A DNA stretch of 64,000 nucleotides from Candidatus Levyibacteriota bacterium. Lineage in GTDB: Bacteria; Patescibacteriota; Microgenomatia; Levybacterales; UBA12049. The DNA is taken from positions 112,236 through 176,235 of the forward strand of contig CP066685.1 of assembly GCA_016432345.1 (NCBI GenBank), given 5' to 3'. Of the stretch, positions 3,906 through 60,721 are shown in pieces. Numbering within the stretch: position 1 is the stretch's first letter; the number at the start of each line of letters is the position of its first letter. Both the position numbers and the translations under genes were made by a program. A model generated the notes under the pieces. The model searched no databases and was not told the origin of the DNA. It saw only the letters and a program-made list of their open reading frames with translations.

Positions 3906-3940
3906 TAATTTCTAATTCTTAATTTCTAATTTCTAATCAA
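3906..3940. repeat. Heptamer tandem array, 5 units: TAATTTC TAATTCT TAATTTC TAATTTC TAATCAA
   Basis: Read directly; lies in the purF-purC spacer. Confidence 0.9.
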
Positions 3941-3952
3941 ATCCAAATGTTT

Positions 3953-4008
3953 AAAAATTAAATATTAAAAATTGAATGAAAATTAAAAATTTAAAATTGA
4001 AAATTTGT
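3953..4008. repeat. AT-rich 7-nt-phased array, 8 units: AAAAATT AAATATT AAAAATT GAATGAA AATTAAA AATTTAA AATTGAA AATTTGT
   Basis: Read directly; extends into the last codons of purC (...TNFQF*). Confidence 0.75.
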
Positions 4009-10155: not shown

Positions 10156-11857
<1,702 letters not shown>

Positions 11858-31055: not shown

Positions 31056-32875
31056 AGAAATTCCGGCACGTCATCACTTTTTACCAAAATATGCGCATGT
31101 TGATTAATAACTCTTTCGGGAAGATCCATAATAAAACGGGAAACGGAATTTGATGTTTTTTGTCCAAAGAAAATTCTGTGTCTTGCATAGGTTAAAAACA
31201 ATTTTTGTTTGGCTCTGGTAATGCCAACGTAGCACAGCCTTCGTTCTTCCTCAAGTTCGCTCCTATCCATGAGGCTTCTGCTATGTGGAAAAAGTCCTTC
31301 TTCCATTCCAACCATAAAGACAACAGGGAATTCCAGTCCTTTTGCCGCATGCAGAGTCATAAGTGTTACGGCATTTCGTTTTTCGTCTCCGATAGGTTTG
31401 TCCGGCATATACTCTTGTTCAACAAGGGCAACATTTTCTAAAAATTGTGACAGGTCTGGATATTCAATAGCCACACTCCTTAATTCTTTAATGTTTTCAA
31501 GTCGTTGGCGGTCGTCCTCGTCCTTTTCATCATACAAGGAAAGATAGTCTGTTTTTTGCAGTACTGTATCGAGTAGTTCGAGTGTGGGAACTGATTGTAT
31601 ATTAGTTATTGATTGTTGTAGAGACAAGAATTTTTCTAAACGGCCTTTACCGAGTTTTTCTATACGTTTGTACGATACCGTATCTTTTGGGTTGGCTAGT
31701 ATTCGTAAATACGAGAGGACATCTTTAATTTCTTTTCTTTCGTAAAATCTGGTTCCTCCAATGAGTGTATATGGAATTCCTTGGTGGAGAAAAACCTCCT
31801 CGATAGTACGGGATTGCGCATTAGTGCGGTATAAAACGGCCATATCGGTAAGCTCTCTTTTCATAAAAGATATTTGATTGACAATAAATTCAGCTTCCTG
31901 GTATCCGTTTGTCGCTTCATAAATACTTATGTCATCGCCGTTTGGATTTTGGGTCCACAGTTTTAGTATGGGATGACTTTTATTTTTACTAATTACAGAG
32001 GATGCTGCATCGAGGATTTTTTGGGTAGAGCGGTAATTTTGAGAAAGCGGAAACGTTTTAACATTCGAAAAATCGTTTTTAAAACGGGTAATATTTTGAA
32101 AATCTGCGCCACGCCACGAGTAAATGCTTTGGGAAAAATCTCCTACGACACAAATGTTATTCCATTTTTTGGCGAGTAGCTTAGTTAGTTGATATTGGGC
32201 AAAATTCGTATCTTGATATTCGTCAACCAAAATATACTGGAAGCGATTTTGATATTTTTCTAAAACTTCTGGAGCTTTTTCAAAAAGTTCAAGGACACAA
32301 AGCAGTAGGTCATCAAAATCAAGAGCGTCATTTTCTTTTAATATTTTTTGGTATTCTCGATATACATTTGCTGTAACTTCTTGAAAGTGGCCCCTGGCAT
32401 ATTTTGGGTATTCATCTGCGCGAATTAGCTGGTTTTTTGCCTGGGAAATTGTTGCAAGTATCGAGCCGGGTTTATACTCTTTTGGAGAAAGATTAAGTTT
32501 TTTCATAACCTCTTTGATTGCATCTAACTGGTCTTGGCTGTCGTAGATTATAAATTGAGAAGAAATGCCAATATGCTTGCCGTCAATCCGCATGATTTTT
32601 GCACATAAGGCATGGAAGGTAGTGACAAGTGGCTGGTCTTTTTCTTGAAACATTTTGCGAATTCGCTCCTTCATCTCGTTTGCAGCTTTATTCGTAAATG
32701 TTACAGCGACTATATGAAGTGGATCGATACCTTTTTCGATAAGATGCAAAATTCTATAGGTAATTACCCGTGTTTTTCCGCTTCCAGCTCCAGCTAAGAC
32801 GATAAGTGGTCCATCTGTTTGTAGAACAGCGTTTTGTTGTTCTATATTTAGTCCATTGAGAAAATCTTTCTGCAT
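31052..32875 (-). CDS. pcrA: UvrD/PcrA-type ATP-dependent DNA helicase (short form)
   Basis: LNIEQQNAV...AGAGSGKT...FTNKAANEM...VDEYQDTN...; ATG at 32875. Confidence 0.88.
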   Translation of the reverse strand: MQKDFLNGLNIEQQNAVLQTDGPLIVLAGAGSGKTRVITYRILHLIEKGIDPLHIVAVTFTNKAANEMKERIRKMFQEKDQPLVTTFHALCAKIMRIDGKHIGISSQFIIYDSQDQLDAIKEVMKKLNLSPKEYKPGSILATISQAKNQLIRADEYPKYARGHFQEVTANVYREYQKILKENDALDFDDLLLCVLELFEKAPEVLEKYQNRFQYILVDEYQDTNFAQYQLTKLLAKKWNNICVVGDFSQSIYSWRGADFQNITRFKNDFSNVKTFPLSQNYRSTQKILDAASSVISKNKSHPILKLWTQNPNGDDISIYEATNGYQEAEFIVNQISFMKRELTDMAVLYRTNAQSRTIEEVFLHQGIPYTLIGGTRFYERKEIKDVLSYLRILANPKDTVSYKRIEKLGKGRLEKFLSLQQSITNIQSVPTLELLDTVLQKTDYLSLYDEKDEDDRQRLENIKELRSVAIEYPDLSQFLENVALVEQEYMPDKPIGDEKRNAVTLMTLHAAKGLEFPVVFMVGMEEGLFPHSRSLMDRSELEEERRLCYVGITRAKQKLFLTYARHRIFFGQKTSNSVSRFIMDLPERVINQHAHILVKSDDVPEFL

Positions 32876-32879
32876 GTCG

Positions 32880-32885
32880 TATAAT
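32880..32885 (+). promoter_or_regulatory. TATAAT 6 nt upstream of the tpiA ATG, inside a 16-nt divergent gap
   Basis: catgtcgTATAATgataccATG; the -35 position falls within pcrA coding sequence. Confidence 0.35.
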
Positions 32886-32891
32886 GATACC

Positions 32892-33554
32892 ATGAAGAAG
32901 ATATTAATTGTTGGAAATTGGAAATCAAACAAGACAGAGATTGAAACCAATGAATGGTTTCAGAGATTTACGATTTACGATTTACGATTTACGAATAAAG
33001 AAATCATCATTTGTCCGCCGTTTACATTATTATCAAATCTTAAATCATCAATCTTAAATCATAAATCTTTTATTAAGTTGGGTGCGCAGGATATTTCGCC
33101 GTTTGATGAAGGTGCTTATACGGGCGAGGTAAACGGGAAGCAAATTAAAGAGTTTGCCGACTATGTGATTATCGGCCATTCAGAACGAAGACGGTATTTT
33201 GGGGAAAGCGAAGATATAATTGTTAAAAAAATAGAAATGGCGCAAAAATACGAATTAACTCCAATAGTCTGTGTATCAGATATTAAGCAAGCTGAAAACT
33301 ATACGCGCTATACGCTAATTATCGCTTATGAACCGTTGTTTGCAATTGGTTCGGGAAACCCCGATACGCCGGAGAATGCAAATGAGATGGCCAAGAAAAT
33401 AAAAGAAATAATTGATGCTCCTGTTATCTATGGAGGGAGTGTAACCTCGCAAAATGTAAAGAGTTTTACTCAAATGCCAAGTATTGATGGCGTATTGCCT
33501 GGAAAGGCAAGTCTTGATGCTAACGAATTTGCAAGCATTATTGAGAAAGCATAA
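32892..33554 (+). CDS. tpiA: Triosephosphate isomerase
   Basis: MKKILIVGNWKSNKT...IIGHSERR...IAYEPLFAIGSG...YGGSV. Confidence 0.9.
   Translation: MKKILIVGNWKSNKTEIETNEWFQRFTIYDLRFTNKEIIICPPFTLLSNLKSSILNHKSFIKLGAQDISPFDEGAYTGEVNGKQIKEFADYVIIGHSERRRYFGESEDIIVKKIEMAQKYELTPIVCVSDIKQAENYTRYTLIIAYEPLFAIGSGNPDTPENANEMAKKIKEIIDAPVIYGGSVTSQNVKSFTQMPSIDGVLPGKASLDANEFASIIEKA
32965..32999. repeat. Heptamer array inside tpiA: GATTTAC x4 then GAATAAA
   Basis: Read directly; encodes ...RFTIYDLRFTNK... Confidence 0.95.
33035..33069. repeat. Heptamer array inside tpiA: AAATCTT AAATCAT CAATCTT AAATCAT AAATCTT
   Basis: Read directly; encodes ...SNLKSSILNHKSF... Confidence 0.9.
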
Positions 33555-34643: not shown

Positions 34644-36113
34644 TTATTGAGAGTTTTGGAGGAAAAATTTGTAATCTTGTTCATTAACTAATCCATCTTT
34701 ATTAAAATCAACAGCATTTTTATCCAAACACGATGATGTATTTGCTTTTTCTTTGAAACAGTTAGTAAATATTTGGTATATACTTTGTGATTTTAAGTCA
34801 CTGTTATTGGCGGCATTTAAACACGATGCTTTTATATTAGCGTTAATAAAAGGGAATTGGTTGCCAGTTTTGCTTAAAAGGTTAAAAACTTTTATGTCTG
34901 TAGGATTTGGATTATTTTTTTGATACATCTCCCATTTAACCCATCCCCATTCCTTGCTATAATAAAAATTTTCAAAATTATCTCCGTAGTCATATTTTAA
35001 AACAATAATATCCTGAATTCCTAAATCTCCACCAAGGTTATATGCAGGATCATGTTTTTCCAATGTAATTTTATAGGAAAAAGGTCCAGAGTTTATAATT
35101 GTGTCTAGTGTTTCTCCTTTTGTATTTACTGCTTTACTACTTGATCTCTTGATGCATTTTAAATTAGATAGATTTTGGTCGTATAACTGAAGCAGATTAC
35201 TATTTCCAACTTCGATGGTTTCTCCAACGTTCATCTGTCTTTTCATCCATCTTCCGTCGGAAAAAGTCATTGACGGAACTGCAAGAAGAGTTCGATCTTC
35301 TTTTAGATAGATATATTGGTCATCCCATGTGTGGAGTTCATAAAAGAGTGGACTATCGCCTTTGACGTAGTAAGAAATTCTTTTGTTGGTATCAATTGTT
35401 TGACTTATAAGATGATTACCATTTAGATTTTCGTTAGGATGATGTGTGAGAAAATACGATAACGTATCTATTTTTGTTTGTGGTGGTGTAGATTGATTTG
35501 TGTTTGTTGTCGGAGCAATAAGAAATACAGTAGCTGTTAAGGTTTTGTATGTTATTTGATCAAATAATGTTATTTGTACCATTCTTTGTGCTTGTGATTC
35601 ATTATCTTTTAACTCATTTAGCCTCCATGGAATAGATTGAGAGAGAGCTTGAATTAAGTTATCTGTAATTTCTAGTGGTTGGTTTCCTTTTATGCCATTG
35701 TCAATATTTTCAATGCGTATCTTTTTTAAGATATGCGTTGTTGGCGCTTTTGATGATACTGGTTGAATTGGTTGTTGTGTTGCAGGAATATCTGGTTTAC
35801 TACTGCCAATACCGATAAACTGTTGCTTAGGTAATTGTGTCGGTAGTGGTTGTTGTGTGGGAATATTTGTTGATGTTGGTTGTATACAGTGTTGTCGGTA
35901 GAGTTTTGGTTCGTATGTTTTTGCACAAGCACACCATATAGGAGATCCTGCAGAATCAGGGCCAAAATCTGTTCCTGGAGTGCCTAAGAAACTTCCATCT
36001 GTCGCACAACGGGCACACAAGTTTGGATAAAACTTGTTTGATTCACATATAGGTTTTGGTGTTGGAATTGCTGTTGGTTGTTGTGGGGGGGGGTATATTA
36101 CAAGAGCCAACAC
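34644..36113 (-). CDS. C-terminal ~470 aa of a split Cys-/Pro-Gln-rich surface protein, with a dockerin/EF-hand-like tail
   Basis: Begins inside the C9 tract; ...PPPQQPTAIPTPKPICESNKF...; ends ...DFNKDGLVNEQDYKFF. The track's 'MLALVIY' start is an out-of-frame reading of the upstream ORF. Confidence 0.6.
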   Translation of the reverse strand: MLALVIYPPPQQPTAIPTPKPICESNKFYPNLCARCATDGSFLGTPGTDFGPDSAGSPIWCACAKTYEPKLYRQHCIQPTSTNIPTQQPLPTQLPKQQFIGIGSSKPDIPATQQPIQPVSSKAPTTHILKKIRIENIDNGIKGNQPLEITDNLIQALSQSIPWRLNELKDNESQAQRMVQITLFDQITYKTLTATVFLIAPTTNTNQSTPPQTKIDTLSYFLTHHPNENLNGNHLISQTIDTNKRISYYVKGDSPLFYELHTWDDQYIYLKEDRTLLAVPSMTFSDGRWMKRQMNVGETIEVGNSNLLQLYDQNLSNLKCIKRSSSKAVNTKGETLDTIINSGPFSYKITLEKHDPAYNLGGDLGIQDIIVLKYDYGDNFENFYYSKEWGWVKWEMYQKNNPNPTDIKVFNLLSKTGNQFPFINANIKASCLNAANNSDLKSQSIYQIFTNCFKEKANTSSCLDKNAVDFNKDGLVNEQDYKFFLQNSQ

Positions 36114-36555
36114 AGAGTCCGCCGCGGCACCAAGTAAAGCCTTCTGGACACCATGATTGGCAATTTCCTACATCGCCATTACATTGTTCTTGTGTACAGG
36201 TTTTTCCGTTTGGAGCAGCACAGATACCAGATGGTAATGGTTCTTGGGCATAGGCATTTTTGATAATATTGTTGTTTCTGCTTTGGGTAGGAAGTTGCCA
36301 GGTAGAAGGGAGAGCTATTTGAAGATACACAACAGGGTCTGATGTTTGAGAAATTGGAATTCCAGTTGCATCAACAATTTTAATAACATCGTTACTTGAG
36401 GCTTTTTGTGTGAGGTTTTGGACTGTGAGAGCTGCGCCGATGGTGACGGGAAGAATAAAGGTAATGGCAAGGATAATAAAGAGACGCTTTTTGTCTGGGT
36501 TTGCTTCCAGAAAAAACTTGAAACGAGCAATATGCTGTTTTATTGTTTGATACAT
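36043..36555 (-). CDS. N-terminal part of the same surface protein (signal anchor plus Cys-rich module)
   Basis: MYQTIKQHIARFKFFLEANPDKKRLFIILAITFILPVTIGAAL...ICAAPNGKTCTQEQCNGDVGNCQSWCPEGFTWCRGGLCVGSCNIPPP, then 13 out-of-frame codons and a stop. Confidence 0.6.
   Translation of the reverse strand: MYQTIKQHIARFKFFLEANPDKKRLFIILAITFILPVTIGAALTVQNLTQKASSNDVIKIVDATGIPISQTSDPVVYLQIALPSTWQLPTQSRNNNIIKNAYAQEPLPSGICAAPNGKTCTQEQCNGDVGNCQSWCPEGFTWCRGGLCVGSCNIPPPTTTNSNSNTKTYM
36085..36093. repeat. G9 homopolymer (C9 on the coding strand) at the junction of the two ORFs
   Basis: ttgtGGGGGGGGGtatatt read directly. Confidence 0.95.
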
Positions 36556-36587
36556 TATTTTTACAGTAGCATCGGGAGTATATAATG

Positions 36588-38738
36588 TCAATAGACTTGG
36601 TAGATTTTTGTCTGATTATTTTGGTAAATAATTTTTCCTAAACGATCAAATTTTTTGATATTAAGATTTGGGTATTTTTGGCGTTCTAGGTCGCCTATAA
36701 ATATGAGGGAAATCTTGTATTTATCCATGAGTTGTTTTGTGCTGGTAAGATCACTTGTTTCATAAAGCATTTTTACTTCGTTAATTCGGGGTGCTGGAAT
36801 ATCGTATGTTCCCCGCCACAGCCATTCATGGACTGTCCATCCCAAAACCGTTGGCAAACCGGTATTGCTGGAAACTCGTGCATAGTCGGTGTACGAATCC
36901 CCTTGTGCCTCGAGGATTACCGGTTGTCCTTTTATATTTTTATTTAACCACCCAATTGCATTGTAGTCAGTCGGATATTGTTTTTTAAGGTATGCTGTTC
37001 CGTCAAGACCATAATATGTTTGCAAATTACCATAGTAAGAATTGATAGCAAAGTAAGGGTAAATAGATACGAGCAATACAAGAATTGTAGCAAGTAGTAT
37101 ATAGCATGTAGTACGTACATAATACCTAATACTTAATACTATCCGAAGGATAATATATCCCGAGGAGAGAGAAAGCATCATAAAGGATTGATAGACAAGT
37201 TTAAACATGGTATTGGCTCTGTAGTGGGCAGGGTAGATATCTTTTACATAGATAAATTCGGGGAGGATGATCAAAACAGCGGATAGGAGAATTAAGAGTA
37301 AGACGAAAACATCACTAGCGTATAGCGTATAGTGTTTAGTTTTTAGTTTTTTCCAGATAAAAATAAGAAAGGATACTGCCCAGAAGCAAAAAAAACCATA
37401 CAATATAAGCATCTGCCACCAGGGCGAGTGTTGACAGTGGTCTTTCTCAAATAAAAAAGGTCCAATTTTTCCAATATCCGTTAAAAAATTGGGCGCACAT
37501 AAGACGCCTATGCCGGAAACAAATGGTTTGAAATGTAACGAAAATGGAAGGGAAAAAAGAAAAAAACCAGCCAGGATTAGCGTATAGCGTATAGCGTATA
37601 GCGTATAGTTTTTGGAGCGATGAGCAAGATAGAAAAAGATAAACAATGTTAGTAGTCCATAAATAATGCCATCCCAGGCATTGGTCATATACATGATTGC
37701 TAATAAGAAGCTTATTAGCAAAATTTGAAATTTGAAATTTGAAATTTGAAATGAATTTTTATTTTTATAATTTTTAATTTGATTGAAAATTGAAAATTGA
37801 AAATTGAAAATTAAAGAGAGTAGTACTGCTATTGTCATCAACACAAACGGAATGTCTATAACATGACCGTGGAGATCGGAAACAACAAATGAGTACATGG
37901 GGAATTCGTGAATAGTGTTGTGAATAAAACGGGTAGCATTTGGGTACCAGTAGTTATTTGGGAGAGTATTTGGAGAAAAAGCAAGTTGCCAGACAGGAAC
38001 GGGATTTTCGTTGGTATAAGGTTTGAAAAAGGTGTAGATAGTATGTAAATTTCCAGCCATAGATACTAGAAATGCTGTCAGTACCCCTCCAATTATTAAA
38101 ACTTTTAAGTTTTGAATTTTGAGTTGATTGATGAGATTTGCACCGATAGAAAAAGAGCAGGTAAAAGTAAAAGCAAAAATTGTTGCCAGCATAAGATTGT
38201 AGGTCATGTTTGATGGAAGCATTGATGCTTTTGTCAAAACAGCAGTTACCAAATGACCAAAGTAATAGTAGTTGATCGAGAAGGGAGTAAACCACATATC
38301 TTTTGGTGGGAAATAATCGGCTCGAAGAATTGAATTAATAAATCCAAAATCCATGTATTTTTCCAGTCCGTGAATATCTGGTTGAAAACCACGAATGTAT
38401 GACCAAAATACTATTCCTGCAAAGAAAAGCAGTTCTTCAAAAAGAAAAATACGTATTGTTGACTTAGTATTCTTTTTTAGAATAAATGTGTTTATTGCAA
38501 CAAATAAACTTGCTATTAAGAAGATAGTTGAGAATGTAAAAGGAAGAATTTTTAACGTTCCTAAAACAAAAACAGCGTAGCTTACAAAAGCCATGCCCAG
38601 TATTTTAGAGAAGATATATCCTTTATCAAAAAAGTTTGAAAATATCAGGGTGGTTATCGGGAGGAAAATAATCCCTATTAAAAAAAATACAAACCACCAC
38701 TGGATAACAAAATAAAAATCAGATAAAGACATATGCAC
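36588..38738 (-). CDS. Large polytopic membrane protein, DUF2298 / 'YYY' family (GT-C-like)
   Basis: 716 aa; ...FSINYYYFGHLVTAVLTK... is the YYY signature; C-terminal soluble domain ...GQPVILEAQGDSYTDYARVSSNTGLPTVLGW... Confidence 0.6.
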   Translation of the reverse strand: MHMSLSDFYFVIQWWFVFFLIGIIFLPITTLIFSNFFDKGYIFSKILGMAFVSYAVFVLGTLKILPFTFSTIFLIASLFVAINTFILKKNTKSTIRIFLFEELLFFAGIVFWSYIRGFQPDIHGLEKYMDFGFINSILRADYFPPKDMWFTPFSINYYYFGHLVTAVLTKASMLPSNMTYNLMLATIFAFTFTCSFSIGANLINQLKIQNLKVLIIGGVLTAFLVSMAGNLHTIYTFFKPYTNENPVPVWQLAFSPNTLPNNYWYPNATRFIHNTIHEFPMYSFVVSDLHGHVIDIPFVLMTIAVLLSLIFNFQFSIFNQIKNYKNKNSFQISNFKFQILLISFLLAIMYMTNAWDGIIYGLLTLFIFFYLAHRSKNYTLYAIRYTLILAGFFLFSLPFSLHFKPFVSGIGVLCAPNFLTDIGKIGPFLFEKDHCQHSPWWQMLILYGFFCFWAVSFLIFIWKKLKTKHYTLYASDVFVLLLILLSAVLIILPEFIYVKDIYPAHYRANTMFKLVYQSFMMLSLSSGYIILRIVLSIRYYVRTTCYILLATILVLLVSIYPYFAINSYYGNLQTYYGLDGTAYLKKQYPTDYNAIGWLNKNIKGQPVILEAQGDSYTDYARVSSNTGLPTVLGWTVHEWLWRGTYDIPAPRINEVKMLYETSDLTSTKQLMDKYKISLIFIGDLERQKYPNLNIKKFDRLGKIIYQNNQTKIYQVY
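37121..37141. repeat. Heptamer array AATACCT AATACTT AATACTA
   Basis: Read directly; lies inside the YYY gene. Confidence 0.8.
37317..37351. repeat. Heptamer array AGCGTAT x2, AGTGTTT, AGTTTTT x2
   Basis: Read directly; the sense strand encodes ...KTKHYTLYAS... Confidence 0.95.
37579..37613. repeat. Heptamer array AGCGTAT x4 then AGTTTTT
   Basis: Read directly; the sense strand encodes ...KNYTLYAIRYTL... Confidence 0.95.
37699..37719. repeat. Perfect 9-bp inverted repeat GCTAATAAG-aag-CTTATTAGC next to the arrays
   Basis: Read directly; lies within coding sequence (...LLISFLLAI...). Confidence 0.9.
37721..37755. repeat. Heptamer array AAATTTG x4 then AAATGAA
   Basis: Read directly; the sense strand encodes ...FQISNFKFQ... 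Confidence 0.95.
37782..37816. repeat. Heptamer array ATTGAAA x4 then ATTAAAG
   Basis: Read directly; the sense strand encodes ...FNFQFSIFNQ... Confidence 0.95.
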
Positions 38739-38746
38739 TTATACTT

Positions 38747-40276
38747 TCAAAAAGTTTGTGTTTTGAATATAAAAAACTGTGTAGATCCATTAATATCTTT
38801 TATATCAAAAATTCTACCATCAGGAAAAATACTTTTTAATTCATCCACTTTAAAATAATACTGAGGGTACAGAATATACACACTGCTTTTATTTCTTATT
38901 ATAGAGGAACCTAAGACAGTGTTGTTTTGGGAATAGTTATTAAAAATAAGATCGGTTCTATTTGATTCCGGAGCGAGAAACCGGAGTGTACCGAAGTTCG
39001 AGTAACCTTCGTACGGAGTTACAAAAATTATTCGTGTTGATGGAGGTAGAGATTGAAGGTAATAAGAAATCTTAGTTGCTGCGCGCGCATTTAAATCACC
39101 TACAACCTGATTGGGGTAAATGAAAAAGTATGTATAAAGGTTACTACCAATCATTGTAATAATTAAAGATGCTGCTATTATTCTGTGGTTGTTCTTTCCC
39201 TTAATATGTTGAATAAACATCTCAATGCCTAGGGCAACAAAAGTAAAAAGTACAGGTAGGCTTATTACAAAACGAGGTAGAAAAATGGGGGTTGGTACAG
39301 TAGTAAATATCTGCCCAAGTATAGCAAGAAATAACCACAAAAAGAGAAATGAATATGGAAACGAAAAAAATCTTTTCGCTCCATAGAAAAGGCCAAGACA
39401 TAAAAATACCAGCGTTGTGTAATCTATGAGTTGTCCTTTGAAACCGTATTGTGTACTGTTGTCCCCAGCAAAAATATTAAACGTTTTTTTTGTTTGTTCA
39501 AAAATGATTTCACTCTCTGATTTTTGATAGTTTGTCCATTTTCTACCAGAGTCAGAAAAAATATAGACACTTTTTGTTCTACTAAAGAAAGTTTCTGGAT
39601 GATCTAAAAAAAATTTTCCTTGTGGAGCAAAGATAACTAGTACCCCAAGTGTAAAAATAAAGAGGTTAAGAACCTTATTCAGAGAGAATTTTTTTACATA
39701 GTGAATGAAGATAGGTAATATCATGATTGGGATTATTCGGACTGCATAATATGAATAAAGGCTTAATCCCATAAAGCAGCCTGCAACAAAAAAATAAATC
39801 ATGTGTTCTTTTTTAATCGCCTTAAAGAGAAAGTACAGCGTTATTAATGCTAAAAATGTTGCTTGTACATATGTTATTCCAACTCTACTTAAAGCAAGCC
39901 ACATATGTGATGTCCCAAGAAGTATAGTTGCAAAAAATGCAATTCGAGGAGTGAAGAGAAGTTTTAGAAGAAGATAAAATACAGGAAGAGTTAATAAGCC
40001 AAAAATCACAGAACCCATTCTATTCCCTACTGCATTTTCGCCAAATATAGCCATCCCTAGTGCGTGAGGAGCAAATGATAATATAGGTAAATCAAACCAG
40101 CCAACTCCAAAAATATTTACAGAGCGTGTAACAATTTTAAGAGCCTGAAGCGCAGTTTCTCCCTCGTCTCCATGCACGCTCGTGGGTATTGTATTAAGTT
40201 TTATAATATATAGGCTTATGATACCTAATGAAATTAGTAAAATAGTAAAAATTTTAACAACCCGTTTGTAGTGCAT
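38747..40276 (-). CDS. GT-C membrane glycosyltransferase (family 39 / ArnT-PMT-like)
   Basis: 509 aa, about 11 TM; first-loop acidic motif ...HGDEGETALQAL... Confidence 0.65.
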   Translation of the reverse strand: MHYKRVVKIFTILLISLGIISLYIIKLNTIPTSVHGDEGETALQALKIVTRSVNIFGVGWFDLPILSFAPHALGMAIFGENAVGNRMGSVIFGLLTLPVFYLLLKLLFTPRIAFFATILLGTSHMWLALSRVGITYVQATFLALITLYFLFKAIKKEHMIYFFVAGCFMGLSLYSYYAVRIIPIMILPIFIHYVKKFSLNKVLNLFIFTLGVLVIFAPQGKFFLDHPETFFSRTKSVYIFSDSGRKWTNYQKSESEIIFEQTKKTFNIFAGDNSTQYGFKGQLIDYTTLVFLCLGLFYGAKRFFSFPYSFLFLWLFLAILGQIFTTVPTPIFLPRFVISLPVLFTFVALGIEMFIQHIKGKNNHRIIAASLIITMIGSNLYTYFFIYPNQVVGDLNARAATKISYYLQSLPPSTRIIFVTPYEGYSNFGTLRFLAPESNRTDLIFNNYSQNNTVLGSSIIRNKSSVYILYPQYYFKVDELKSIFPDGRIFDIKDINGSTQFFIFKTQTF

Positions 40277-41882
40277 AAATGATTAATTGAGTATTTGGAT
40301 TTTCATATGATTTTACAAAATTTATATCAAAAAAGTCTTTATTAATTATAAAATCTCTGCTGGGATCATTTTCTATACTTACATACATGAGATTGTGTTT
40401 TTTTATAGACTGACAAAAGTCAGGTAAAGATGACTCATTAAATAGTTTCTTTCTTAGTAAGTCTCGTTCAAGCGTATTGTATCCTAAAGACCAAGAAAAG
40501 TAGGGCCAACCTAAAAATATCTTACGCCCAGCTAAAGATGCAGGATGATACAAATACGAAGAATTAAGAAACACTGCTTTTTTGGGTGTATGTTTCATAA
40601 TCCATGCAACGTCGGGATTTTTAGGATAATCTGCAAGTTCCATATAGCTATCATTTTTGATTGGAAAAAAATCAATAATTCCAGAAAGCATAAGGAAAAA
40701 TAGAGCAAAAATCACAAGCGGTTTTGTAAAAAGGTGCAGTTTCCAAAACTTTACAAGTAAAAATGCACTATACATATTTCCTCCAATAAGGAATGCATTA
40801 AAAAATTTGTGATTTGCTGCAATTTCTAAACTTAGCTGCACAGAGTGCCCTACAAAAAAGATAAGAAGAAATGGAATAAATACTTTTTTTGCTAATTTTG
40901 GAGAAAGCATAACTCCAAGAGGAATAAGAAAAAATGAGAGGCCAAGATTAAAAAACCAATACCTAAAAAACGATAAGAAAGTAAGCTTTTCTTGAATAAG
41001 GTAAGTAAGGTTAATGTATGGTGTAAATGTTGCTGTTTCTTTTAAGAAAAGGATACGAGGAAGAGAAAGAAGTCCTCCTAAAACAAGTATCATAAAAACT
41101 GCTTTTCTTTGCCGAGGAAAAAGGAGAAAAAATGTTACAAGTGTTAACCCAAACATAATAAAGACGCCTGAGTGAAAAAAGGGGAGCAATCCTAACAGTA
41201 AACCAAAGACTGTTGATAAAAAAAGGGGAAGGACCTTTTTCTGTTGGTCATATTTTACAATATAGAAAACAAATAGTAAGAAAAGTCCGAGGGGAAGAGC
41301 CAAGTGTCTTTGATTGGTGTAAATATTTAAATTCCAAAATGCTGATACAATTTTTCCATCATACGGTCCAAATGAAGGAAATGCTGTGTTTGTAAAAACA
41401 TCATGTATTATAGTAAAAGATATTGGGTGGATTTTAAAAAACTCCAAAAAAGAGAGCGAGCCGTTAAAAAGGAATAGAAAAACCGAAAGAAAACCAACCG
41501 CTCTGCTTTGGAAAAGCGTTGTTGCCAAGTAATAAATTGTAAGAATAAGAAGAAAAAAAGATATGCTGCTTGGGATATTGAATGCCCAATCAATTTGCAA
41601 GCCTAGTTTTTCTAGTAATCCAACAAAGAAGTAGAAAAGAAAATGGTATCGGATTGGCTCTCCTGGAAAGAGCGGGTACTCTGGAGGAATATTATTTCCA
41701 AACGAAAAGGAGCGAATAAGGGGGATATGACCACCAAAATCACTCCATGCCTTAGTAGCTATCTGCATTGTTCCATTTGAATATGAAAATGTATGAAACA
41801 TTAACCAAAAACTGAAAATTATAATACAGGGTAAAAAGATCCAATTGAAAGGAGTAATATGGGATTTAATACGCTTAAACAT
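40254..41882 (-). CDS. Polytopic membrane protein, probably a GT-C-fold glycosyltransferase
   Basis: 542 aa, more than 12 TM, C-terminal soluble domain; ...WSDFGGHIPLIRSF...PGEPIRYHF... No firm family assignment. Confidence 0.45.
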   Translation of the reverse strand: MFKRIKSHITPFNWIFLPCIIIFSFWLMFHTFSYSNGTMQIATKAWSDFGGHIPLIRSFSFGNNIPPEYPLFPGEPIRYHFLFYFFVGLLEKLGLQIDWAFNIPSSISFFLLILTIYYLATTLFQSRAVGFLSVFLFLFNGSLSFLEFFKIHPISFTIIHDVFTNTAFPSFGPYDGKIVSAFWNLNIYTNQRHLALPLGLFLLFVFYIVKYDQQKKVLPLFLSTVFGLLLGLLPFFHSGVFIMFGLTLVTFFLLFPRQRKAVFMILVLGGLLSLPRILFLKETATFTPYINLTYLIQEKLTFLSFFRYWFFNLGLSFFLIPLGVMLSPKLAKKVFIPFLLIFFVGHSVQLSLEIAANHKFFNAFLIGGNMYSAFLLVKFWKLHLFTKPLVIFALFFLMLSGIIDFFPIKNDSYMELADYPKNPDVAWIMKHTPKKAVFLNSSYLYHPASLAGRKIFLGWPYFSWSLGYNTLERDLLRKKLFNESSLPDFCQSIKKHNLMYVSIENDPSRDFIINKDFFDINFVKSYENPNTQLIIYALQTGC

Positions 41883-42560: not shown

Positions 42561-43787
42561 TTAGATAATTTGTGCAATTTTTTCTCCAAGTTCTACCGCG
42601 TAGTTTGTGCCGCGATCCCAAGGATAGACCTGTTGCATATTAGCAAGGAAAACATTTTTTAATGGTGTTTCTAGTGTTGGTATTATTTTTGAATAATAGG
42701 TAGGAATAATCGGCTGGGCGAAAGGAGCTTTAAACAGCGTATAGTTAATAGCGTCTAGCGTATAGTTTGGATTTATTTTTCGTAGATAAGGATCATAGAT
42801 TTTTAGAAGTTCATTAGCAGATAATTTCATGTAGGGGTGGTCGTGGGGAACATAATTGCCAAGATAAACGATATGTTCATTATTATAATGTTTAGAATCC
42901 ATAAAATTAGTGTGTTCGACAATTGCCATGATGGGAGATTCTTTGTCACAAATACTTAGCCAATAGGTATTGTCAGGTAAAAATGGTTTTTTGAGACGAA
43001 GAATAAGGTTTATTGCACCTAATCCTTTTAATTGCAGCAGGTTTTGTTTATAAACATTTGGTAGTTGTGGAGCGATTTTGACAAAATAAAACGATGGTAA
43101 AGTGACGATGATCTTATCAAAATTTTTCAACTGTTTTATTTCTCTAATTTCGGTATTAAATAAAAATTTTCCCCCATTTTCTTCAATTTTTTTTACCAAT
43201 GCATTTGCGAAAGTAAGGAAACCGCCCGATGGATAGGCAAGTTGTGCTGTTCGTTTATTAATCCTTGCCCAAAACCAGGCCAGCGAAATATCATCGGCAT
43301 AATCCCCAAATTTATTATGAAGTTGGGGCTCCCAAATTGTTTGATAGGCATTTTTCCCCATGGCGTTTTGTAAAAATTCATTCGTTTTTATACTCTCGAG
43401 TGGTTGCCAAAAGGGATTGTATTTTAAGCTTCCAAGAATTGCAGCCATCCGCAAACGATCATAAATCTTTAGTTTGGGAAATTGGAGTAGATGGAGCGGA
43501 GAGTCGAATTGATAGATTTCACTATCAACGTAGACAGATGTTTTGGGCCGTTTTATGATAATTTTATGATCAATTTTTCTTGCCAGCGAAAGAATAGAGT
43601 TATCGTTTGTAAACCAATGATGATAATGCTTTTCCAATGTCCATTCCCAGTTTTTTTCTAAATAGCCAACTGCCAGTCCGCCGGGATTTTGGTCTTTCTC
43701 AAAAACATAAACTTTGTGTTTTTCTTGAGAAATATAATAAGCTGCAGAAAGACCGGTAAATCCTGCGCCGATAATAGCTATTTTCAT
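42561..43787 (-). CDS. FAD/NAD(P)-binding oxidoreductase (amine-oxidase / protoporphyrinogen-oxidase / UDP-galactopyranose-mutase-like superfamily)
   Basis: MKIAIIGAGFTGLSAAYY...VFEKDQNPGGLA (dinucleotide fold); ...HYHHWFTND... and ...IVEHTNF... are reminiscent of mutase-type members. Confidence 0.7.
   Translation of the reverse strand: MKIAIIGAGFTGLSAAYYISQEKHKVYVFEKDQNPGGLAVGYLEKNWEWTLEKHYHHWFTNDNSILSLARKIDHKIIIKRPKTSVYVDSEIYQFDSPLHLLQFPKLKIYDRLRMAAILGSLKYNPFWQPLESIKTNEFLQNAMGKNAYQTIWEPQLHNKFGDYADDISLAWFWARINKRTAQLAYPSGGFLTFANALVKKIEENGGKFLFNTEIREIKQLKNFDKIIVTLPSFYFVKIAPQLPNVYKQNLLQLKGLGAINLILRLKKPFLPDNTYWLSICDKESPIMAIVEHTNFMDSKHYNNEHIVYLGNYVPHDHPYMKLSANELLKIYDPYLRKINPNYTLDAINYTLFKAPFAQPIIPTYYSKIIPTLETPLKNVFLANMQQVYPWDRGTNYAVELGEKIAQII
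42735..42769. repeat. 35-nt heptamer-phased element AGCGTAT AGTTAAT AGCGTCT AGCGTAT AGTTTGG
   Basis: Read directly; the sense strand encodes ...PNYTLDAINYTLF... Confidence 0.9.
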
Positions 43788-56589: not shown

Positions 56590-56592
56590 GAT

Positions 56593-56958
56593 TTAAATAA
56601 TAATAAACACTGTTCTGATAATAAGAATGAATGAAAAAAACGCAACAAGAAAACTTGTCATGCAAAGAAATCTAGCCACCAGCGGCATTTTATTATAAAT
56701 AAAATAGGAGCAAAAAAAATTGCTAATTACAATAAAAACAGACATCAAAAGTGGAATAAAAATTTGTGATTTTGTGGCGAGTCTTTCTTCTCCCCAAGGC
56801 ATTTGATTATAAAGGGGAATAACTGGAGGAAATTTAGGAAGATAAAAAAGTAAAAAGAAGAGTTGTAATATGCAAAAAAAAGCCGAAAGCGCAATACTGC
56901 CAAATATAATTTTGTCTTCTAGGAGATCTTTAAAATTTTTTCTCATAAACTTGAGCAT
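56593..56958 (-). CDS. Hypothetical 4-TM membrane protein
   Basis: 121 aa; hydrophobic profile only. Overlaps the upstream GT-C stop by 29 nt. Confidence 0.4.
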   Translation of the reverse strand: MLKFMRKNFKDLLEDKIIFGSIALSAFFCILQLFFLLFYLPKFPPVIPLYNQMPWGEERLATKSQIFIPLLMSVFIVISNFFCSYFIYNKMPLVARFLCMTSFLVAFFSFILIIRTVFIII

Positions 56959-58387
56959 CGTAAATCATAATTTGTTCCTGATAGTCTTTTATAGAAAATG
57001 GTATAGATTGATTGTGGGACGAAACAATAAAAGTTGGTTTTATTTTATTTATTGCTATTTGTGTTTCTGCAAGTGTCTGCGGCGATGATGTTATATGGTA
57101 TGCAACGATAAATCGGCCGGGGGGAAGTTCATTTAGAAGCGCATACACTTGTCCATTATTTCCCCAAATAAATACTGTGTCATTTTTTTCCATGTGTGTT
57201 TTAAGATAGCTTGCAATTGCATAATCGGCTGGTGTATGTTTGTCAAAAAAACTTTGGTATGCAGCTACACTTTTTTTGTTAGCAACAAAAGATAAATAAT
57301 TTTCGTAATAAGAGAATATTTTTGTATAAAAAGTGAAGTTTAATCCAACAATAATTATTGTAAAGAAAAGCATAAGACCGACAATTTTTTTATATGCTTT
57401 TGTTTTGTTTTCTGTTAGAAAGAGTCCTAGCATAAGAGAGAAACTTGGGAGTAAAATCAGCAGATAATGCGTGTATGGTCTTTGAGAAAAAAAGGTATTA
57501 AAAAGGGAAAATATAAACCAAATGAAAATGAAAAGTTCAGATGAAGAGAATAAATTTCTTTTTTTGAAAAGAAAAATAGAGCCAGAAAATAAGAAGAAAA
57601 GTTTTAACAAGAGTAATCCTTGTGGAATGAGGAGACGATTGCCATAACTTACGTAGCCAATATTTTGACGAAGCGTTGCTTCTAAAAAGGGCGTGAAAGC
57701 GCCTTTAAAGAAGAAAAACGCTGCTGTAAGAAAAAGAGGAACTGCAAATGCAGCAAAAAATAACATAAGATGTTTTATAATTTGGTTTATAGATTTACTG
57801 CTGTTTTTTTCTATATAAATAAGAAAGAGGGTAAATGCCGCAAAATCAAAAATGGCGACAATTTTAAAAAGAAAAGCAAGAGAAAGGAAGAAGCCAGCAA
57901 TAATAAGCGTATAGGGTTTAGCGTTTAGCGTATAGTTGTAAATTAAAAATCCTGCGAGAATAATTGGAAGGAGCATAAAGTTTTCGGCATTGGCGATGTT
58001 GCCTTCTAAAAGAGGAAGTCCAAATAAAAGCGCAAAAAAACCAACGGATAAAAAAACTGCTTTTTCAGCTTTTAATAGTTTCTTCGAAATTAAATAAAAA
58101 GTAAAAACTGCCAGAATTCCAAATACAAAAGATAAAACTCGTAAACTAAATTGATCTGAGGAAAAAAGAGCATAGATAATATAGAGAAGCGGAGGCTTGT
58201 TGTCCCAAATATCTTTATAAAGCAATCTATTCTCATTTAACGCAATGCCAATGACTTGGTAAATTCCTTCGTCGCCATACCAATATGGTTCTATAAACGA
58301 AGGAAGACGCAATAAGAAAAATACTACAGTTACGCCAATTAAAAACCAGCAGTCTTTAGTTTTCTCGATTTTTGTCAGTAATTTCAT
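56930..58387 (-). CDS. GT-C membrane glycosyltransferase (ArnT/PMT-like)
   Basis: 485 aa; first loop ...YWYGDEGIY...DIWDNKPPLLY... is typical of family 39/83-like enzymes. Confidence 0.65.
   Translation of the reverse strand: MKLLTKIEKTKDCWFLIGVTVVFFLLRLPSFIEPYWYGDEGIYQVIGIALNENRLLYKDIWDNKPPLLYIIYALFSSDQFSLRVLSFVFGILAVFTFYLISKKLLKAEKAVFLSVGFFALLFGLPLLEGNIANAENFMLLPIILAGFLIYNYTLNAKPYTLIIAGFFLSLAFLFKIVAIFDFAAFTLFLIYIEKNSSKSINQIIKHLMLFFAAFAVPLFLTAAFFFFKGAFTPFLEATLRQNIGYVSYGNRLLIPQGLLLLKLFFLFSGSIFLFKKRNLFSSSELFIFIWFIFSLFNTFFSQRPYTHYLLILLPSFSLMLGLFLTENKTKAYKKIVGLMLFFTIIIVGLNFTFYTKIFSYYENYLSFVANKKSVAAYQSFFDKHTPADYAIASYLKTHMEKNDTVFIWGNNGQVYALLNELPPGRFIVAYHITSSPQTLAETQIAINKIKPTFIVSSHNQSIPFSIKDYQEQIMIYDAQVYEKKF
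57907..57941. repeat. 35-nt heptamer-phased element AGCGTAT AGGGTTT AGCGTTT AGCGTAT AGTTGTA
   Basis: Read directly; the sense strand encodes ...YNYTLNAKPYTLII... Confidence 0.9.
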
Positions 58388-59881: not shown

Positions 59882-60693
59882 AGTCTAAAAATTGCTTTGG
59901 CGTTTTTGGTTGTTTGCGTATCAACTTCCTCAAGCGAAATACCTTTAATTTTGGCTATTTCTTGCCCTACTAGTATAGCATATTGCGGTTCGTTTCTCTT
60001 GCCCCTATAGGGTATTGGAGTAAGGTAGGGACTATCTGTCTCGATAACAATTCGATCAAGAGGTACGTAGTTTACAAGTTCGGAAAGTTCGGTATCCTCA
60101 CCAGGAGCTAATCCTTTATAGGTAATATTACCGTCAAAGCCTACATAAAAGCCTAAATCAAGCACTTTTTTGGTGAATCCAATATTTCCTGAAAAACAAT
60201 GAAACATTCCAGGAGGATTAAAGATTAATGATTTATGATTAATGAGAATATCTAAAATTTCTTTTCCGGCGTGGCGGTTGTGGATTTGCAAAGGTAATTT
60301 AAGCTTATGAGCAAGTTCAATTTGCTGTATAAAAATTTCTGCTTGTAATTTTGGGTCGGTAATGCCGTTTGATTGGTATCGGTAGTTATCCATACCAATT
60401 TCGCCAATAGCCACTACTTTTTTGCTCGATTTTGCTATGGTTTTAAGTTGTGTAAGCCAATCTGTTCCAAGTTCGATTTTGTCTGCATGGTGGGGGTGAA
60501 CGCCCACAATGGCATACATTTCGCCAGCTGGCGAATCGTATTTTTCTGCCAGTTCGACAGCCTTCTGGCTGGAATCAATCTTGGTGCCAACATTTATAAT
60601 GGTTGTTACACCGGCCGCAAAAGCACGTTTTGCAACCTCATCGTAGTCATTATCATAAGCTTGAAAATTAAGGTGGCAATGGATATCAATCAT
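59878..60693 (-). CDS. tatD: TatD-family metal-dependent hydrolase
   Basis: MIDIHCHLNF...GEIGMD...HNRHA...ETDSPYL. Confidence 0.88.
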   Translation of the reverse strand: MIDIHCHLNFQAYDNDYDEVAKRAFAAGVTTIINVGTKIDSSQKAVELAEKYDSPAGEMYAIVGVHPHHADKIELGTDWLTQLKTIAKSSKKVVAIGEIGMDNYRYQSNGITDPKLQAEIFIQQIELAHKLKLPLQIHNRHAGKEILDILINHKSLIFNPPGMFHCFSGNIGFTKKVLDLGFYVGFDGNITYKGLAPGEDTELSELVNYVPLDRIVIETDSPYLTPIPYRGKRNEPQYAILVGQEIAKIKGISLEEVDTQTTKNAKAIFRL

Positions 60694-60721
60694 AGATTCT
60701 ATTATAATAGATTCTATTATA
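60692..60721. repeat. Perfect 15-nt tandem duplication ATAGATTCTATTATA x2
   Basis: Read directly. Spans the tatD start codon and the tatD/SemiSWEET divergent spacer. Each copy carries a TATTATA(A) -10-like box. Confidence 0.9.

Follow-up and report, generated by a model that had tools for sequence, protein, structure and literature searches.

Heptanucleotides are the most over-represented of the longer simple repeats in prokaryotes, and period 7 is favoured over its neighbours, according to the survey of Mrazek et al. 2007 as it is relayed in PMC4692102 and PMC4679880. It has been suggested that prokaryotic heptanucleotide repeats originate by slippage connected with a polymerase footprint of 7 nt, while the units found within coding sequence are, so far as these accounts of the survey go, multiples of three (PMC4692102, PMC4679880). 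The arrays described here from Levybacteria, which are uncultured CPR bacteria, share with the long simple sequence repeats of that survey a tandem iteration above chance; the survey's non-triplet units, as relayed, are mainly non-coding, whereas in Levybacteria the period that dominates coding DNA is not a triplet one. The Levybacteria trait is on or off between related clades, which would not be expected of a property common to all polymerases.

The STRR heptanucleotide repeats of heterocystous cyanobacteria, to which the heptamer repeats GGGGA(T/C)T and GGGAATC of Nostoc and Xanthomonas are related (PMC4692102), had been proposed as the closest analogue in an initial annotation of this DNA, and the comparison is a fair one. 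Both systems consist of tandem 7-nt units, with many arrays per genome and a lineage-specific abundance. STRR, however, use a few fixed units genome-wide, whereas 161 Levybacteria arrays fall into 81 canonical unit classes, the commonest of which comprises 13 arrays. Furthermore, STRR-type arrays are mostly intergenic and vary extensively in length even between close relatives (PMC4692102), whereas 96% of the Levybacteria arrays lie in open reading frames (ORFs) and, unlike STRR, they are size-quantised at 31–33 nt.

A translated heptanucleotide repeat is known from NeuO, the phage-borne O-acetyltransferase of E. coli K1, where an AAGACTC repeat of variable number (VNTR) in the 5' part of the coding sequence has been shown to act as a phase switch: full translation requires a repeat number that is a multiple of 3, copy numbers range from 3 to 53 and 66% of genomes are out of frame (PMC13001214). 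The Levybacteria arrays share with NeuO translation, the three-unit frame rule and the reading of all three unit frames; NeuO, however, is a single gene with one unit, whereas in Levybacteria many genes and units are involved, at ~4.4 copies and essentially always in frame. The TAACTGA direct repeats of marine Beggiatoaceae, Cyanobacteria and Bacteroidetes are likewise short heptamer arrays (2–6 copies) abundant in particular lineages, yet they have one unit, lie mostly just upstream of start codons and are a proposed regulator binding site (PMC4679880).

The Levybacteria unit measures 7 nt, so that only a triple unit is frame-neutral. This is unlike the tandem repeats of Borg elements, whose in-ORF units are reportedly multiples of three. 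The likeness to the Borg repeats (PMC9879509) lies in perfect, fast-evolving tandem repeats inside ORFs that add low-complexity peptide, which in Borgs creates disordered protein regions. The Levybacteria arrays thus resemble STRR and NeuO but differ from each, and our literature search found no published description for this lineage, in line with the initial annotation, which was aware of none. The Levybacteria form is unusual in being within genes, translated, size-quantised and kept as perfect as stop codons allow.

Five arrays in a DUF2298 membrane protein gene

The window, by which we mean the whole stretch of 64,000 nt analysed here, contains a gene with five heptamer arrays, laid out as follows.

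36588..38738 (-), DUF2298/YYY membrane protein gene; 716 aa; Pfam PF10060, E 2.7e-99; carries the five arrays
37121..37141 (-), short AATACYT x3 array (AATACCT AATACTT AATACTA; sense AGTATTA); encodes IVLSIRYY, aa 533–540
37317..37351 (-), composite array AGCGTAT x2 / AGTGTTT / AGTTTTT x2; encodes KKLKTKHYTLYA, aa 463–474, loop
37579..37613 (-), AGCGTAT x4 + AGTTTTT array (sense ATACGCT); encodes KNYTLYAIRYTL, aa 376–387, loop
37699..37719, 9-bp inverted repeat GCTAATAAG-aag-CTTATTAGC; a chance feature outside the array phenomenon
37721..37755 (-), AAATTTG x4 + AAATGAA array (sense ATTTCAA); encodes NSFQISNFKFQIL, aa 328–340, loop
37756..37781 (-), spacer between two arrays; itself a decayed, AAATTAA-like period-7 tract
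37782..37816 (-), ATTGAAA x4 + ATTAAAG array (sense TTTCAAT); encodes SLIFNFQFSIFN, aa 308–319

The product is identical to NCBI protein HYV37_00870 of a Candidatus Levyibacteriota metagenome-assembled genome (MAG); the closest protein in a database of 5.8 billion proteins is 73% identical, and a near-identical strain was not found there. All five arrays, first reported in the initial annotation, could be retraced unit by unit, their quoted peptides are correct, and they sit in inter-TM loops, between hydrophobic TM-like segments; array 37782–37816 is placed where a TM segment ends and a loop begins. Tandem Repeats Finder recovers the same five arrays and joins 37721–37809 into a single period-7 tract of 13.4 copies with 78% matches. 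Arrays elsewhere in the window are of equal size, as had been noted. The earlier description of four good units and one decayed unit is accurate, although four units plus the first 3–5 nt of a fifth describes the arrays better, and the fifth unit, supposedly decayed, probably represents microhomology in the flank of the original seed rather than the outcome of decay.

Each of these sites recurs in related loci (numbered L001 onwards). Array 37782–37816 lies at an orthologous hot spot with arrays in 8 genomes and is 97–100% identical across L001, L002 and L003, among which the spacer can also be aligned. At the hot spot of 37721–37755, 11 genomes have arrays with 8 different units; the array at 37579–37613 is also present at this site in L001 and L065; the hot spot of 37317–37351 is common to L005, L014 and L029, with other units there; and arrays occur at the site of 37121–37141 in 9 other genomes, including one with a matching unit (L004:11683). 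L029, the nearest relative, has only ~1.4-copy seeds at the double-array site of the window and a loop 17 aa shorter; depending on the genome, this loop measures 40, 42, 55, 59, 71 or 73 aa.

Between the window and L001, the arrays are 93% identical, compared with 54% at third codon positions of conserved residues. Conservation beyond synonymous sites, together with hot spots kept across many genomes, would be expected if selection acted on a product, either a peptide with a 7-residue period or an RNA, for example with sites for cold-shock-type proteins of one heptamer each; binding to direct repeats of a heptamer is reported for CspB (PMC4679880). Against this reading, which we regard as very unlikely, unit sequences vary freely at one site and no motif common to all units was found. 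Moreover, the repeats match as nucleotides, at synonymous positions too, a degree of identity that selection on a peptide does not call for, and related clades have equivalent loops of unchanged length without arrays.

The 9-bp palindrome at 37699–37719 is present as annotated, yet it does not exceed chance: perfect inverted repeats with 9-bp arms and a loop of at most 6 nt give 9 matches in the window (7 distinct repeats, two being counted at two loop sizes), against a simulated mean of 5.4 and a maximum of 13. The site encodes part of a hydrophobic TM helix (LLISFLLA) and its palindromy is absent in orthologs. A hairpin or other special role was rejected, as the frequency of such repeats is no higher than simulated chance.

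Period, size and coding location of the arrays

We surveyed the window together with 80 related Levybacteria loci, 1.45 Mb in all. This sample holds 161 period-7 arrays, against 0–16 for periods 5, 6 and 8–15 (12, 16, 7 and 2 for periods 5, 6, 8 and 9); periods 6, 9 and 12 are rare, unlike in the triplet-compatible repeats of the Borg type. In the window alone, 4 perfect period-7 runs reach 21 nt or more, as does no run of period 5, 6, 8 or 9, whereas 200 second-order Markov simulations of the window gave a mean of 0.01 and a maximum of 1. A real size mode, as the initial annotation had supposed, is evident in the window plus the 80 loci: the lengths of perfect runs fall geometrically from 14 to 21 nt, are nearly absent between 22 and 30 nt and peak at 31 nt (14 runs), 32 nt (8) and 33 nt (5), and no such peak was found in other periods. 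Arrays with a 14-nt sub-period do not differ from the others in total length. With the arrays masked, runs of 8 or more consecutive lag-7 matches still number 121 per Mb in array-rich loci, versus 43 per Mb in loci free of arrays; the excess is about twofold at lag 14 (the harmonic of lag 7) and smaller at lag 8, while most other lags are similar.

The trait is concentrated in one block of the neighbour-joining (NJ) tree, where 23/23 leaves have arrays at a density of 2.24 per 10 kb, compared with 0.54 per 10 kb elsewhere. An effect of composition was rejected: array density shows no relation to GC content (Spearman 0.08) and the most A+T-rich loci are without arrays. This, with the simulations above, also speaks against chance arising from an A+T-rich composition. 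All sequences are MAGs, which could raise the suspicion of an assembly or sequencing artefact, but 44 independent assemblies, produced by different projects, have arrays at orthologous positions, with intact ORFs; we assign a negligible likelihood to artefact or chance.

The remaining arrays of the window show that the phenomenon is not a speciality of one membrane protein.

3906..4005, two imperfect period-7 arrays (TAATTTC x4.6; TTAAAAA/AAAATTN x8) between a purF-like gene and purC; the window's only arrays outside a long ORF
32965..32994 (+), perfect GATTTAC x4.3 array within the triosephosphate isomerase gene 32856..33554 (+) (Pfam TIM, E 3e-60); encodes RFTIYDLRFTN; a hot spot with arrays in 8 genomes
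33035..33069 (+), AAATCWT x5 array with a 14-nt sub-period, in the same isomerase gene; encodes SNLKSSILNHKSF
42736..42765 (-), degenerate array of AGCGTAT units within a flavin amine-oxidase-like gene; peptide NYTLDAINYTL
57906..57935 (-), degenerate array of AGCGTAT units within a PMT_2 glycosyltransferase gene; peptide NYTLNAKPYTL
60216..60245 (-), GATTAAT x4.3 array (sense TCATTAA) in a TatD gene; encodes LINHKSLIFN

Across the sample, 154/161 arrays (96%) are located in stretches of 600 nt or more that lack a stop, versus 86.8% of random 31-nt windows (binomial p 1.6e-4); the 6–7 non-coding arrays are too few for a comparison of the size mode outside ORFs. Array-bearing genes, some with Pfam support, include soluble housekeeping enzymes and encode triosephosphate isomerase, TatD, FemAB and amine oxidase. 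In metagenomes, at least 120 contigs carry an ATACGCT array, and the 30–34 nt class of (ATACGCT)n is over-represented in a coding context (18/46 versus 4/40, p 0.0026); this is a loose, single-unit control, and the (ATACGCT)3 scan behind it gave mixed organisms with GC 0.22–0.69.

The first base of the arrays falls on the three codon positions in 41, 49 and 64 cases, and the underlying process is thus blind to frame. Many arrays depart from perfection only at the base that would yield an in-frame stop. The consensus unit would create an in-frame stop in 46/79 imperfect coding arrays, and in these 46 the would-be stop codon, 10% of the positions, takes up 62% of the mismatches; in 27 arrays all mismatches are confined to it. 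In the TatD array, one of three mismatches abolishes the would-be in-frame TAA.

A non-triplet repeat within an ORF is the classical design of a switch, and several array-bearing genes encode envelope glycosyltransferase-like proteins; one may thus think of contingency loci in which gain or loss of one unit switches genes by phase variation, as for NeuO. Yet the 154 arrays lie in intact long ORFs, differences between genomes (of relatives, not strains) are mainly 0 or 21 nt and not 7 or 14, and ~4.4 copies stand against the 3–53 copies and 66% OFF genomes of NeuO. Since the arrays are, in addition, not confined to surface or modification genes, as the enzymes listed above illustrate, and as many as five occur in one gene, we find phase variation very improbable.

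Hot spots and length changes

Orthologous comparison locates 114/161 arrays at 22 hot spots, at which units differ between genomes. For the most part, the arrays are not insertions relative to orthologs: the modal length difference between array and ortholog is 0, without a peak at 30–35 nt, and the insertion of a ~35-nt element was rejected on these grounds. The amine-oxidase segment 42736–42765 is a case in point, as its 11 codons hold arrays of other units in L060, L009 and L006 and non-periodic DNA in L012 and L031, at a length that is constant across all compared genomes, array or not. Among close pairs (flank identity of 0.78 or higher), 41 comparisons give a local length difference of 0 and 5 give +21 nt; +7 nt is seen once, 14 nt never, and other values occur 1–4 times each. 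Explicit 21-nt gaps are found for L014 versus L009 and L036 versus L002, each corresponding to one unit that changes from 1 to 4 copies; a unit replaced at constant length was also observed for L009 versus L014.

In the FemAB loop, the unit is seeded by conserved flanking sequence and the long variants consist of a fresh perfect array adjoining an old decayed one. A contracted state (13 aa) was found in none of 46 genomes. Variants shared between units, in block and alternating patterns, account for 19/64 variable columns.

Local seeding alone is insufficient, because units recur more often than composition predicts: identical units make up 4.0% of pairs within a genome and 1.7% between genomes, against an expected 0.39%. 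A strong genome-specific template is only weakly supported by the difference between 4.0% and 1.7%. The excess sharing, the ATACGCT array that occurs in constant register at four window sites and in the metagenome contigs, and the double-array element, which is more conserved than the remainder of the DUF2298 gene, could point to small mobile elements inserted in frame, like Rickettsia palindromic elements or cyanobacterial small dispersed repeats. We hold this to be highly improbable in view of the 81 unit classes, of units derived from local conserved sequence and of flanks that differ between arrays, with neither conserved termini nor target duplications. The modal ortholog difference of 0 and the commonest non-zero difference in close pairs, 21 nt and not the 31–35 nt of an array, argue likewise. 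Homology of the DUF2298 and PMT_2 proteins as the source of their shared array and flank was rejected, the BLASTP match being not significant.

Possible origins of the arrays

The period specificity, size quantisation, coding location, hot spots, 21-nt differences, stop-avoiding mismatches and clade specificity observed here are best accommodated, in our opinion, by clade-wide slipped-strand mispairing in a 7-nt register that is filtered by the reading frame, and we consider this origin rather probable. In one group of Levybacteria, strands would mispair 7 nt out of register, with two outcomes. A unit may be corrected to match its neighbour at unchanged length, a concerted evolution that would keep arrays as perfect as selection permits. 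Alternatively, units may be gained or lost, in which case the frame would survive only a three-unit change, that is 21 nt or 7 codons; only such changes would pass, because almost the whole genome is coding. A 7-mer with 3–5 nt of flanking microhomology (~1.4 copies, 10–12 nt) would thereby jump to ~4.4 copies (31–33 nt), where the array would be trapped, since each single-unit step is a frameshift. Arrays would persist only where 7–11 arbitrary residues are tolerated, in loops and surface segments, and this restriction would explain why the same positions carry arrays of different units in many genomes.

From these patterns we infer slippage with conversion, and with it the logic of the frame trap. 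Since close relatives differ by 21 nt or 0, the array size is best explained by frame-filtered slippage; the earlier argument that a fixed size points to a common process stands, but its use against slippage does not, given these 21-nt differences. Constant-length replacement of units would require conversion or rapid cycles of gain plus loss, because most ortholog comparisons lack a length difference. Further points also weigh against the mechanism: stop-containing units cannot arise by simple 1-to-4 amplification without a null-allele intermediate, and periods 3, 6 and 9, frame-neutral at every step, are rare while period 7 is common.

An alternative that we judge unlikely is a clade-specific 'writer' that overwrites a fixed ~31–33 nt, or three helical turns, with a locally derived 7-mer in tandem; the role could fall to a polymerase, a primase or a repair pathway that works in a 7-nt register and has a molecular ruler, and such a writer might serve as a diversifier of loops. 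Such a process would fit the sharp size mode whatever the unit sequence, the equal total length of the 14-nt sub-period arrays, the replacement of equal-length sequence by most arrays, the seeding of units from conserved flanks, the on-or-off, clade-specific trait among relatives and the different units at one loop across genomes. However, the 21-nt differences and frame logic make a ruler unnecessary to explain the size, neither an enzyme nor a template came to light as a candidate, and arrays also occur in housekeeping enzymes, where diversification lacks an obvious use. We likewise attach a low probability to the broader proposition of a DNA-metabolic activity in the sub-clade, absent from sister clades, that rewrites ~30-nt coding stretches as tandem repeats of a 7-mer from the same locality and keeps them homogeneous. 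If it existed, a sequence-agnostic writer of 7-nt register would act on membrane and cytoplasmic proteins alike and would be a built-in generator of new 7–11-residue segments at tolerant loops, as distinct from passive replication slippage.

Under the preferred reading of frame-filtered slippage, the arrays would exemplify in nature how the reading frame can both filter and trap a non-triplet microsatellite, and would offer loops of conserved proteins, triosephosphate isomerase included, a way to gain and renew short peptide segments. The setting is tractable because closely related clades have or lack arrays at the same loci, and this contrast offers comparative genomics a handle on the responsible factor. 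On the practical side, such arrays in CPR genomes will confound alignment, dN/dS analysis and the annotation of repeats.

An Rfam scan of the window returned tRNA only. At several other Levybacteria loci, but not in the window, a G+C-rich element of ~24 nt, CCCTTCGGCTTCGCTCAGGGCRAG, lies inside heptamer arrays. It resembles the small dispersed repeats (SDR) that Elhai et al. 2008 are said to have described nested in the heptameric repeats of Nostoc punctiforme; unlike in that case, array and nested element are both translated in Levybacteria.

Heptamer arrays of the DUF2298 gene and its surroundings

The five period-7 arrays that the initial annotation placed within 37121-37816 are present exactly as it listed them, and all are hosted by a single open reading frame (36588..38738, minus strand) whose product, a DUF2298/YYY membrane protein of 716 aa (Pfam E 2.7e-99), has the same sequence as HYV37_00870 from a Candidatus Levyibacteriota MAG. 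The encoded peptides (SLIFNFQFSIFN, NSFQISNFKFQIL, KNYTLYAIRYTL, KKLKTKHYTLYA and IVLSIRYY) fall between hydrophobic 19-mers in a simple hydropathy scan, which puts them in short loops that separate TM-like segments, as proposed. The window contains four perfect period-7 runs of 21 nt or more, compared to a simulated mean of 0.01, and none at periods 5, 6, 8 or 9. The 9-bp palindrome at 37699-37719 does exist, yet it has no special status, as nine such repeats are observed against a simulated mean of 5.4 (maximum 13). It codes for part of a TM helix, and the orthologs are not palindromic there. Elsewhere in the window, arrays share the size of those in the DUF2298 gene, as had been claimed.

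Heptamer arrays of the window outside the DUF2298 gene
3906-4005: two imperfect arrays in an intergenic stretch
32965-32994 and 33035-33069: two arrays in the triosephosphate isomerase gene (32856-33554, plus strand; Pfam TIM E 3e-60)
42736-42765: one array in a flavin amine-oxidase-like gene
57906-57935: one array in a PMT_2 glycosyltransferase gene
60216-60245: one array in a TatD gene

Triosephosphate isomerase is a highly conserved enzyme; its arrays lie near the N terminus (residues 37-47 and 60-72), and the ortholog at locus L010, from another Levybacteria genome, carries a different array at the first of these sites. A 25-nt x1.9 repeat (3954-4001) overlies the intergenic heptamer tract, and the start of the TatD gene contains a perfect 15-nt x2 tandem duplication (60692-60721; ATAGATTCTATTATA). 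Neighbours of the DUF2298 gene (38747-41882 and 54597-59881) include several envelope glycosylation genes, all on the minus strand, encoding two PMT_2 proteins, a 542-aa membrane protein without Pfam match, GT2-like and GT4 enzymes and a UbiA prenyltransferase. Directly downstream lie two mutually overlapping ORFs (34644-36113 and 36043-36591, both minus strand); the 489-aa one of the two matches no Pfam family, and P, T and Q are frequent in its N-terminal part. GC skew is positive across nearly the entire window (1-64000), the cumulative skew starting at 0 and reaching 1.7 without a turning point, and the window falls inside one replichore.

Size, coding location and orthologous hot spots

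Arrays of every period were catalogued, using our own calling thresholds, in the window and in 80 loci around DUF2298 orthologs of other Levybacteria genomes (1.39 Mb), all of them neighbourhoods of one gene. Period 7 yields 161 arrays (89 with four copies or more), while periods 5, 6, 8 and 9 yield 12, 16, 7 and 2, and hardly any are seen at longer periods; arrays are present in 44 of the 81 sources and built from 81 different units. When long open frames are taken as coding, 154 of the 161 arrays lie in stretches of 600 nt or more that are free of stops, compared to 86.8% of random positions (p 1.6e-4); this makes the arrays translated portions of genes and not intergenic junk. Their first base uses all three codon positions, and the units repeat each other nucleotide for nucleotide, so the process acts on DNA, not on the peptide. 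Selection on a peptide or RNA product does not explain repeats that are nucleotide-perfect while their units vary freely. Between 14 and 21 nt, the number of perfect period-7 runs falls off geometrically; such runs are near-absent at 22-30 nt and peak at 31 (14 runs), 32 (8) and 33 nt (5), with nothing comparable at other periods of the same catalogue. The initial description of four good units and a decayed fifth matches this class, which is better stated as four units plus 3-5 nt.

Altogether, 114 of the 161 arrays group into 22 clusters at orthologous positions, and these hot spots include the sites of all five DUF2298 arrays of the window. In a FemAB-family gene (Pfam), a single loop holds an array in 16 genomes, which together use at least 12 different units there; this array adjoins a conserved NLGL motif, and its unit extends that local sequence. 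That orthologous sites bear arrays in 44 independent assemblies contradicts an assembly artefact. The amine-oxidase gene has an 11-codon segment, NP|NYxLxxINYxL|FK, which four genomes encode by AAATTAT, CAACTAT, AACTTTG or ATACGCT arrays and others by non-periodic DNA, at equal length in all. More generally, array-bearing segments differ in length from their counterparts by 0 (the mode) or by small multiples of three, with no peak at 30-35 nt; at some hot spots, contracted loops were not found. That the arrays are mobile mini-elements is unlikely, given 81 units, ends that are not conserved and a modal length difference of 0.

When the closest genome pairs are compared (flank identity at least 0.78), 41 cases show no local length difference and five a difference of +21 nt, each other value being seen 1-4 times. 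Alignments of relatives reveal one unit increasing from 1 to 4 copies beside older decayed units (L014 vs L009, L036 vs L002), a perfect array facing an equally long decayed one, and one site occupied at the same length by two different units. Opposite the window's double array in DUF2298, the nearest relative of the window's gene (L029) has only ~1.4-copy seeds (TTAATTTTTAAT; AAAATTTTAAATT...) in a loop 17 aa shorter. Depending on the genome, this loop measures 40, 42, 55, 59, 71 or 73 aa and is visibly made of successive heptamer tracts; similarly, long versions of the FemAB loop comprise a fresh perfect array next to a decayed one. Phase variation is an unlikely role for arrays that leave ORFs intact, form short tracts, differ by 0 or 21 nt and also occur in housekeeping genes.

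Homogenisation and a proposed slippage mechanism

Perfect arrays make up 75 of the 154 coding arrays. In 46 of the 79 imperfect ones the consensus unit would create an in-frame stop, and there 62% of the mismatches lie in the would-be stop codon, which represents 10% of positions; in 27 arrays every mismatch is confined to it. Thus, about two thirds of the arrays are as perfect as the reading frame permits. In addition, 19 of 64 variable columns hold variants common to two or more units. Between the window and L001, identity is 54% at third codon positions of conserved residues and 93% in array segments, and the double array is 97-100% identical among the window, L001, L002 and L003. Stop-limited mismatches, shared variants and array conservation appear to call for ongoing unit-to-unit correction at constant length, i.e. 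a concerted evolution without length change, besides amplification and subsequent decay.

Judging from these sequence patterns, we think that slipped-strand mispairing in a 7-nt register generates the arrays; through it, a unit would either be corrected to match its neighbour or be gained or lost. In an almost all-coding genome, the frame would survive only three-unit (21-nt) changes, so that a 10-12 nt seed (a 7-mer plus 3-5 nt of flanking microhomology) would jump to 31-33 nt and remain trapped there, because every single-unit step would be a frameshift. Slippage with such a frame filter would explain why array sizes have a mode, why relatives differ by 21 nt, why coding DNA holds an excess of arrays, why codon phase is uniform, why mismatches avoid stops and why arrays concentrate in loops tolerating 7-11 arbitrary residues. 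A loose metagenome control for (ATACGCT)3 points in the same direction, with the 30-34 nt class enriched in coding context (18/46 vs 4/40, p 0.0026). A dedicated 'writer' of fixed-length arrays seems to us rather improbable. Slippage with a frame filter does not explain why 7 nt is preferred to the frame-neutral periods 3, 6 and 9, how arrays with stop-containing units originate, why contracted loops are missing at some hot spots or why some units, ATACGCT in particular, are reused.

Clade distribution, unit sharing and related repeats

In a neighbour-joining tree of DUF2298 proteins, the window belongs to a contiguous 23-leaf block whose members all carry arrays (2.24 per 10 kb); the remaining 58 leaves average 0.54 per 10 kb, 37 of them having none. 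Array density tracks phylogeny, not composition (Spearman 0.08 with GC), and the most A+T-rich loci lack arrays. With arrays masked, lag-7 runs of at least eight consecutive matches number 121 per Mb in array-rich vs 43 per Mb in array-free loci; other lags are mostly similar, with a smaller excess at lag 8 and a roughly twofold one at lag 14, a harmonic of lag 7. The clade-bound density and the residual lag-7 excess therefore make the 7-nt bias a trait of the clade, not of general bacterial replication.

According to passages in PMC4692102 and PMC4679880 citing Mrazek 2007, heptanucleotide repeats are the most over-represented longer simple repeats of prokaryotes, and their proposed cause is a polymerase footprint of 7 nt. 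STRR, the G-rich repeats of Nostoc and Xanthomonas (PMC4692102) and TAACTGA of Beggiatoaceae (PMC4679880) are mostly intergenic and built from fixed units, with variable length or copy number in those cases where this has been described, whereas the Levybacteria arrays are mostly coding, use 81 units and are size-quantised. The closest translated case is the AAGACTC repeat of NeuO, in frame only with a copy number divisible by three; however, that repeat has 3-53 copies and concerns only one gene, which is phase-variable (PMC13001214), while the Levybacteria arrays lie in many genes. In agreement with the initial annotation, literature searches on CPR or Levybacteria gave no account of such arrays. 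Heptanucleotide repeats as such are known; the clade-wide, coding-embedded, frame-quantised and homogenised form of this microsatellite appears to be new.

Unit sharing exceeds the 0.39% expected from composition, and ATACGCT occupies four sites in the window, all in the same register. The ATACGCT arrays of the DUF2298 (37540-37650) and PMT_2 (57870-57980) genes, both on the minus strand, have a common register and also a similar downstream flank (YTLILAGFF vs YTLIIAGFF), the two proteins showing no significant similarity; ectopic conversion, an ancient homologous loop and coincidence are possible explanations. The unit is common far outside Levybacteria: at least 120 metagenome contigs (L081-L200; GC 0.22-0.69) contain (ATACGCT)n arrays, in coding and non-coding contexts, with perfect runs up to 69 nt and imperfect tracts up to 213 nt.

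A G+C-rich element of ~24 nt (CCCTTCGGCTTCGCTCAGGGCRAG), absent from the window, is found in coding DNA of other Levybacteria loci, several copies lying in the middle of a heptamer array.

Copies of the ~24-nt element, by locus
L003: 11555-11573
L005: 8121-8139
L010: 15141-15159
L014: 10646-10664
L018: 8201-8219, minus strand
L019: 4734-4752

Its position inside arrays recalls Nostoc, where small dispersed repeats are reportedly nested in heptamer repeats. At L015, the DUF2298 loop between DIPFVL and MYMTN (~10480-10620), the same loop that bears heptamer arrays, contains an in-frame, G+C-rich palindromic insert (CCTGCCTCGCCGGCAGGCAGG, encoding PASPAGRR), which may be another small element exploiting array-tolerant loops.
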